Positions 7,090-7,443 of a stretch of 10,342 nt of DNA are shown piece after piece; position 1 is the first letter of the stretch; each line of letters starts with the position of its first letter. The stretch lies in IMG/VR virus record IMGVR_UViG_2526164650_000011; one strand, 5' to 3'. A program made the translations under genes and the position numbers. The notes under the pieces are model-generated. The model was not told where the DNA came from. It saw only the letters and a program-made list of their open reading frames with translations, and ran no database searches. Source of the DNA: a virus (Duplodnaviria; Heunggongvirae; Uroviricota; Caudoviricetes).

Positions 7090-7443
7090 TTGATTGAGTA
7101 TTTGTTATACGGTCTAATGGTTTTTTCAGCATTAAGTATTTATCATTCATATGGTGTGGGTAGAGTGAATATTGATGAGGCGTCGGGGTGTTTCATCCTT
7201 AGGCAGCGTATTGATATAGTCAATGCAGCACGAGCAAAGGCCTTCAGCCGTTTGACAGTTTTGTTCTGTACTCCTGATCGTCTTTCGGGAAGAGACGTTA
7301 TTATTCTGAATAGTGATGCTATACAGAGGGTTTGCGATGAGTTCATGGTTGCTAATTCAGAATTATTTGCTCTTGTTCAGGAGTACAACAGAATAGCCAG
7401 GACCTGTGGTATGGATGAACTTCGGATTACTCATCTGGGGTAG
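7090..7443 (+). CDS. Hypothetical protein (up to 117 aa from TTG 7090; 108 aa from ATG 7117) in AT-rich cargo at the toxin slot of the late operon
   Basis: Open frame in an AT-rich segment. No convincing Shine-Dalgarno for either start and no family recognised. Confidence 0.35.
   Translation: MIEYLLYGLMVFSALSIYHSYGVGRVNIDEASGCFILRQRIDIVNAARAKAFSRLTVLFCTPDRLSGRDVIILNSDAIQRVCDEFMVANSELFALVQEYNRIARTCGMDELRITHLG

Follow-up and report, generated by a model that had tools for sequence, protein, structure and literature searches.

Gene Content of the Window

The stretch of DNA analyzed here, called the window throughout (10,342 nt in all; coordinates are on the window unless another locus is named), corresponds to the late-regulatory region of an E. 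coli prophage, lambdoid and Qin/Stx-like, with many IS3-family elements. Its left part holds, in order, IS copies, relB/relE remnants, a hok-type toxin gene, a DUF968 gene, rusA, and Q. After Q come a PR'-like promoter, tR', two tRNA genes, the ORF that is the subject of this report, a DUF3927 gene, an STnc100-family sRNA gene and an iraM-like gene, and the right end is occupied by a DUF1737 gene and then a phage-21-type holin gene disrupted by an IS. The features from the DUF968 gene to the iraM-like gene are as follows, with their evidence in parentheses:

4338-5387: DUF968 gene
5400-5756: rusA
5771-6592: Q antiterminator gene, 273 aa (Pfam Antiterm, E = 6.9e-55)
6598-6625, plus strand: PR'-like late promoter, TTGATT, 16 nt, TG-TAAAAT, immediately past the Q stop at 6592 (promoter scan)
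6673-6692, plus strand: tR'-like intrinsic terminator, a 7-bp stem followed by TTTTTATT (terminator scan)
6699-6727, plus strand: promoter-like site before the tRNAs (promoter scan)
6737-6812, plus strand: tRNA-Ile2/Met(CAT) (ARAGORN, Rfam; tRNA-Ile by PGAP in locus L001)
6903-6979, plus strand: tRNA-Arg(TCT) (ARAGORN, Rfam; tRNA-Arg by PGAP in L001)
7045-7072, plus strand: promoter-like TTGAAA-16-AAAAAT, 9/12 matches (promoter scan)
7090-7164, plus strand: in-frame upstream stretch with TTG 7090 and ATG 7117, most likely a 5' leader
7153-7161, plus strand: Shine-Dalgarno-like GGTGTGGGT for GTG 7165 (anti-SD duplex -5.3 kcal/mol)
7165-7443, plus strand: conserved coding sequence, GTG start, 92 aa, TAG stop; PHROG 2873
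7479-7610, plus strand: DUF3927 small membrane-protein gene (PGAP annotation in L001)
7676-7865, plus strand: STnc100-family sRNA (Rfam RF02076, 124.2 bits, E = 1.5e-27)
7835-7856, plus strand: STnc100 terminator (terminator scan)
7891-8226, minus strand: iraM-like gene (PGAP name in L001)

As described in an earlier sequence-only reading of this DNA, the ORF encodes 117 aa on the plus strand, from a TTG at 7090 to a TAG at 7441-7443, with an in-frame ATG at 7117 that would give 108 aa; the ORF list and the sequence bear out these coordinates, and the ORF is the first sizeable one after the end of tRNA-Arg(TCT) at 6979. It had also been called unrecognized, which is accurate for the annotation of its own allele, since PGAP places nothing there in the near-identical E. 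coli records examined, but not for its family, which is catalogued as PHROG 2873 and includes Sb55 of phage ST64B and WP_001017777.1. In 2000 dinucleotide shuffles of 6980-7890, chance ORFs of at least 117 aa arose in 4.9% and of at least 92 aa in 19.6%. The length is thus only weakly unusual, and for this reason the claim that the ORF is coding rests on comparison with other sequences.

Evidence for a Protein-Coding Gene

Three alleles are available for comparison in E. coli. Of 5,426 complete E. coli genomes, about 1,200 have DNA of the window type (95-99% identical), as does phage mEp460, and 1,314 have some allele of the gene; window-type copies, at 98-99% identity, differ too little among themselves for a within-allele dN/dS. 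The second allele is represented by locus L003, where DNA homology to the window begins at about 7087, at most 3 bases from TTG 7090. The third, L008 of strain ETEC4079, follows a DNA methyltransferase gene, and PGAP annotates it as the 92-aa hypothetical protein WP_001017777.1. Protein search also found full-length relatives with 56% aa identity (P0014 and P0015) on contigs with unrelated flanking DNA, in which an AraC-type gene stands upstream in place of the tRNAs; across the full-length homologs, found in differing flanking contexts, aa identity is 56-63%.

A gap-free alignment of the three alleles spans 279 nt at 67-72% nt identity, and the 92-aa frame is unbroken in all eight E. coli loci that cover them, as well as in relatives from five other genera. 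Nei-Gojobori dN/dS in the sense frame is 0.26-0.27 in the three pairwise comparisons, and differences are distributed over codon positions as 24/23/44, 19/19/40 and 24/18/40 (chi-square p = 0.004-0.01), a third-position excess of roughly 2:1. This excess among the three alleles is the outcome of the periodicity check that had been proposed for the ORF; in the codon-usage check proposed with it, frame +1 has the best log-likelihood under a model trained on phage genes of the window itself.

In the remaining frames, omega is close to 1 and there are 4-13 stops, except for one antisense frame whose third positions coincide with those of the sense frame. One possibility is that the real gene is on that strand, as an ORF at 7143-7346 (67 aa; 95 aa in L008): its frame has an omega of 0.22-0.38 and is fully open in L008. 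A low omega is to be expected there, however, as a shadow effect of the common third-codon positions; the window and L003 have two stops each in this frame; the sense orientation fits the late operon in every context; and the family profile was built on sense-strand proteins, and finds them. An antisense gene is extremely improbable, and the allele comparisons indicate purifying selection that is specific to the sense frame.

The sequence-only reading had also allowed that the ORF is not a gene. It could be a chance ORF in an AT-rich spacer, or its conservation could be non-coding, as an RNA element or as the leader of the sRNA or the DUF3927 gene; the absence of a PGAP call in the near-identical genomes examined, an ORF length with p of about 0.05 in local shuffles, and a genuine sRNA by Rfam 230 nt downstream would all be compatible with this. 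Opposed to it are the frame-specific purifying selection across three alleles, protein homologs in six genera, the most distant with an identity of about 20% (profile-search E values of 1e-10 to 1e-34), the annotation of homologs both by PGAP and by the authors of the ST64B sequence, and a structure predicted with confidence on the basis of the family alignment. Rfam has no match within 7090-7443, and a terminator-like hairpin inside the ORF (7279-7297) was rejected because it is weak, with 3 G-C pairs, and because L003 does not conserve it. Homologs with a conserved frame do exist, as the diverged alleles and the family members keep it, so that a non-gene is largely refuted by the comparative evidence and very improbable. 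Judged by these comparisons, 7165-7443 on the plus strand is a real gene: a new allele, missed by PGAP, of a known but uncharacterized phage protein family.

Start Codon and Leader

From which codon would this gene be translated? The first proposed length of 108-117 aa is probably wrong, the conserved unit being the 92 aa from GTG 7165. On comparative grounds, translation most likely starts at this GTG (protein MNIDEASGCF...) rather than at TTG 7090 or ATG 7117, a start that would probably lie 75 nt inside the first proposed one. The sequence-only reading found no clear Shine-Dalgarno sequence, as is true of TTG 7090 (anti-SD duplex of -0.4 kcal/mol) and ATG 7117 (-2.6 kcal/mol), but the in-frame GTG 7165, itself a non-ATG codon, is preceded by a moderate one (-5.3 kcal/mol), and with it the suggestions of leaderless or poor translation become needless. 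At the homologous site in L008 the motif is AGGAGT (-6.9 kcal/mol), with AGGAG five nt ahead of the GTG.

The alternative is a longer protein that starts at TTG 7090 (117 aa) or at ATG 7117 (108 aa), with an N-terminal strand that would pack on the conserved C-terminal strand. Several observations agree with it: the TTG is conserved between the window and L003, and the frame is open from there, precisely at the start of DNA homology; the leaders of the window, L003 and L004 differ by indels of 3 or 6 nt, with synonymous differences at codons 7, 9, 11, 12 and 13; the PHROG 2873 profile has 108 positions, and gene callers give 108- or 117-aa forms for about 950 database sequences; a first AlphaFold2 model pairs residues 13-18 with 110-115; and in a distant branch of the family (Serratia, Morganella and Xenorhabdus) there is a conserved in-frame N-terminal extension of 11 codons, MS[IV]QY[IV]L[KR]GY[SA], with mostly third-position changes.

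These points have to be weighed against the poor conservation of the extension as coding sequence in E. coli. In L006 and L007, complete genomes of the L003 type, a 4-nt indel shifts the TTG frame out of register; in L008 the frame is closed by an in-frame TGA 11 codons upstream of the homologous GTG; and window-type variants (P0007, P0009 and P0017) are frameshifted or shortened upstream and keep the core. The open in-frame stretch upstream of the core varies accordingly among the eight E. coli loci (26, 26, 26, 31, 30, 5, 5 and 10 codons). Differences in the first 29 codons have no codon-position bias (11/10/12; omega 0.63), residues 1-23 of the AlphaFold2 model of the 117-aa form have pLDDT below 50, and the two upstream starts are essentially without a Shine-Dalgarno sequence, the position of ATG 7117 being AAT in L003. 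The longer protein is thus rather unlikely, and 7090-7164 would most likely be a leader that is open in frame by happenstance in the window allele. Under the preferred start at GTG 7165, the locus is a clear case of an open in-frame leader that misleads gene callers on the start codon. Peptides would tell the starts apart, MNIDEASGCFILR as compared with MVFSALSIYHSYGVGR, the latter belonging to the longer forms from 7090 or 7117.

The leader in L006 and L007 forms a separate ORF of 23 codons, whose TGA overlaps the core GTG (GTGA), a layout typical of translational coupling. A role of the hydrophobic N-terminal extension as a membrane or signal anchor was also considered, and was dropped because the extension in L003 is not hydrophobic and is not conserved as coding.

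Protein Family

The 92-aa core matches PHROG 2873 with E = 5.6e-58 (194.8 bits), residues 1-92 aligning to positions 17-108 of the 108 in the profile, and the same profile is matched by all nine diverse family members scanned. A profile run against 1.84 billion representative proteins yielded 22 matches, with relatives of 91-110 aa aligning from profile position ~26, and a second, word-indexed search added members from Citrobacter, Salmonella, Morganella, Serratia and Xenorhabdus. All are unnamed proteins of 91-110 aa, with identity down to about 20%. Sb55 of Salmonella phage ST64B was added by tblastn and then hhalign (probability 99.1%, E = 1.2e-18).

Members of PHROG 2873 are like the window protein in size, in their predicted two-helix hairpin and in their late-region location. 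To the annotated E. coli form (P0019, of the WP_001017777.1 type) it is 63% identical, and to ST64B Sb55 only 19%. Compared with the WP_001017777.1-type allele, the window allele has a weaker Shine-Dalgarno sequence, an open in-frame leader and no PGAP annotation.

Pfam has no significant match for either the 117-aa or the 92-aa form, including the RIP N-glycosidase domain, and neither the NCBIfam search for the family nor the PDB sequence searches gave a match (in the latter case, a significant one). The PADLOC defense HMMs likewise match none of three family members or the neighboring genes. Two sub-threshold candidates were set aside: Pfam RHIM on the 117-aa form (E = 0.092, under the family cutoff) as noise, and GapR/UPF0335 from a PDB profile (E = 0.066-0.26) as neither significant nor reproduced by fold search. 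A scan of genome contigs with short peptide patterns returned the E. coli representative only, because the patterns are allele-specific. In the literature, no functional study was found for WP_001017777, sb55, phrog_2873 or DUF3927.

Genomic Context and Distribution

All the members examined run in the same direction as phage late genes, in at least four differing late-region slots as well as on plasmids. In lambdoid prophages of E. coli, Citrobacter, Morganella, Serratia and Salmonella, the gene is located between Q or a late-region methyltransferase gene and the holin gene; in ST64B, between the lysis cassette and the terminase genes; and in Mu-like elements, between tape-measure and DNA-circulation genes. 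Isolated phages carrying it are limited to mEp460 and the ST64B type among 50,697 phage records. Genes for tRNAs are found within about 600 nt upstream in four contexts, namely the window, Serratia (L018), Morganella (L017) and the plasmid locus L013. Across the contexts examined, there is no consistent neighboring partner gene.

The plasmid copies are on 27 E. coli/Shigella plasmids, beside a fimbrial operon, and this branch looks like a phage late-region fragment captured by a plasmid. The plasmids of the branch (P0036) are mostly from pigs; they have a tRNA-Thr gene about 580 nt upstream (L013-L015, ~5347-6276), and their fimbrial neighbor is a K88-like chaperone-usher operon.

In Stx phages, stxAB lies between the late-promoter tRNAs and the nanS-p/holin genes. 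The sequence-only reading placed the ORF where stxA would sit, and it does fill this slot, which it has in common with stxAB: after Q, PR'/tR' and ileZ/argO-type tRNAs, and before the genes for the nanS-p esterase and the holin. The module of L006, from STEC1585, is exactly between the ileZ/arg tRNAs and nanS-p. The likeness would lead one to expect the same Q-dependent late transcription for the window gene, as a positional analogue only: StxA has about 315 aa as compared with 92 aa, and the window gene has no RIP domain, signal peptide, B-subunit partner, or kinship in sequence or fold.

The second allele is accompanied by a 241-aa AraC-type (HTH_18) gene (L003 164-889, L006 5164-5889, L007 3254-3979) that ends 21 nt from the TTG frame and about 90 nt from the core GTG of the family gene, in STEC prophages of Stx-phage-like architecture. 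It may be among the AraC/GadX-like prophage regulators described in EHEC.

A second likeness is to the morons of lambdoid phages, such as lambda bor and lom: the gene is likewise small, seemingly dispensable and patchily distributed, with several insertion points in the late operon and copies on plasmids. In L008 the likeness extends to an intrinsic terminator of its own directly after the gene. Unlike morons, the window gene has no terminator directly 3', and the promoter-like site upstream (7045-7072) does not exceed chance.

Expression

The gene is downstream of, and co-oriented with, Q, the PR'-like site and tR', and the terminator scan finds no further strong plus-strand terminator between tR' and the gene, the next being that at 7835-7856. 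With PR'/tR' upstream and no strong terminator before the gene, Q-dependent late transcription is the natural reading, and a plausible one on purely positional grounds: once Q acts, transcription would run from PR' (6598-6625) through tR' (6673-6692), the presumed target of Q antitermination, and on into the gene. Some low-level expression in the lysogen may come from the promoter-like site at 6699-6727, by read-through of the tRNA region.

An independent promoter had been suggested for the ORF, based on a TTGAAA hexamer. The hexamer is present at 7045-7050, but its pairing with AAAAAT at 7067-7072 does not exceed chance: the pair is one of seven promoter-like sites in the region, as compared with 4.0 +/- 2.2 in shuffles, and because this count is within the shuffle expectation the promoter is unsupported. 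The site is also outside the homology common to the window, L003 and L008. The region's strongest promoter-like match (TTGACA-16-AACAAT, 10/12; 7041-7068) belongs to the minus strand and is directed toward tRNA-Arg.

The two upstream tRNAs decode AUA and AGA, and the gene has the highest proportion of ATA, AGA and AGG codons of any in the window: 8 of its 92 codons (8.7%), as compared with 0.6-5.4% in the others. Given this proportion, the tRNAs would be expected to help in its translation, a match that is suggestive but comes from a tiny sample of eight codons.

Predicted Fold and Possible Roles

The AlphaFold2 model of the 92-aa form, made from the family alignment, has a pLDDT of 88.1 and a pTM of 0.74. 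The confidently predicted fold is an antiparallel hairpin of two helices of about 32 residues each (3-34 and 50-81), followed by a short hydrophobic C-terminal segment; Arg23, Asn64 and Asn75 are invariant. No signal peptide, membrane segment or catalytic-domain signature was detected in this soluble protein, and fold searches returned generic helical hairpins only, with no informative structural match. Among these are Rop-type proteins, which form four-helix bundles by dimerizing; with 5-15% identity, they are generic matches that indicate a structural class and carry no functional information. The fold class and the absence of other features suggest that binding to a partner, not catalysis, would be how the 92-aa protein works, probably in the form of a dimer or four-helix bundle.

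What kind of function might this serve? One alternative is a conserved helper of late functions: a regulator of lysis timing or of the holin, an assembly chaperone, or a factor linked to the phage tRNAs. In five genera, lambdoid prophages have the gene immediately ahead of their holin and lysis genes, which is consistent with this, as are the tRNAs close upstream in the window, L018, L017 and L013 and the richness of the window copy in codons that such tRNAs read. On the other hand, most lambdoid phages lack the gene, its slot varies, the copies on plasmids and in Mu-like tail modules are away from lysis genes and tRNAs, and it keeps no constant partner; overall, a late helper seems unlikely. 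The variable slot, the plasmid copies and the absence from most lambdoid phages point to optional cargo rather than lysis or assembly machinery, and the most likely product is a small binding protein of the accessory ("moron") type, one that would be dispensable and not a core lysis or assembly component. Taken jointly, it is probable that the gene encodes a 92-aa protein from GTG 7165, is expressed from the late operon under Q with the aid of the tRNAs, and acts as partner-binding accessory cargo.

A more far-reaching proposal is that the family is a previously unrecognized, widespread effector of temperate Enterobacterales phages, produced from a Q-controlled, tRNA-boosted stx-type slot and binding a host target at induction or in lysogens. 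This is quite improbable as it stands. One version could involve functional coupling to the adjacent phage tRNAs, a suggestion that arises because the unit of tRNA plus gene recurs in prophages of E. coli, Serratia and Morganella and on plasmids.

The slot itself is the most strongly induced accessory position of lambdoid prophages, the one that holds stx in STEC, and its neighbors include host-modulating cargo (IraM, AraC/GadX-like regulators and the STnc100 sRNA). For both reasons the gene is a reasonable candidate for a role in lysogenic conversion or at the time of induction. About 1,200-1,300 of 5,426 complete E. coli genomes, or roughly a quarter, have no PGAP gene here, an omission that leaves annotation-based pangenome, virulence-association and Tn-seq analyses blind to it. 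The general view of these phages is unchanged, as small conserved hypothetical genes are common in the late region.

Neighboring Elements

In the DUF3927 gene of the window, codon 8 is changed from GAA, found in relatives, to TAA (7500-7502), and there is also a Leu-to-Pro change, so that the copy in this strain is probably a pseudogene. Further DUF3927 genes follow members of the family elsewhere: one in Citrobacter, where a TerB-like gene accompanies it, and a degenerate one in L003.

An IS3-family copy at 9186-10342 cuts the 3' end of the phage-21-type holin gene (8877-9186; Pfam Phage_holin_2_1), and because of this the prophage is lysis-defective, and probably cryptic, in the window strain. 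Another IS3-family insertion (~1865-3069) seems to have split the relE-like toxin gene of a relBE pair into an N-terminal portion (1756-1864) and a C-terminal one (within 2999-3295); the antitoxin gene of the pair, relB-like, is intact at 1517-1756.

The minus-strand gene at 7891-8226 encodes a prophage homolog of the anti-adapter IraM and is antisense to the late operon, an RpoS-stabilizing regulator carried as phage cargo. STnc100 (7676-7865) is convergent with it. In EDL933 there are 11 STnc100 copies, transcribed without induction, one of them confirmed by Northern blot (PMC5331693), and a 2026 preprint relates STnc100 to the PasD sRNA (10.64898/2026.05.13.724894).
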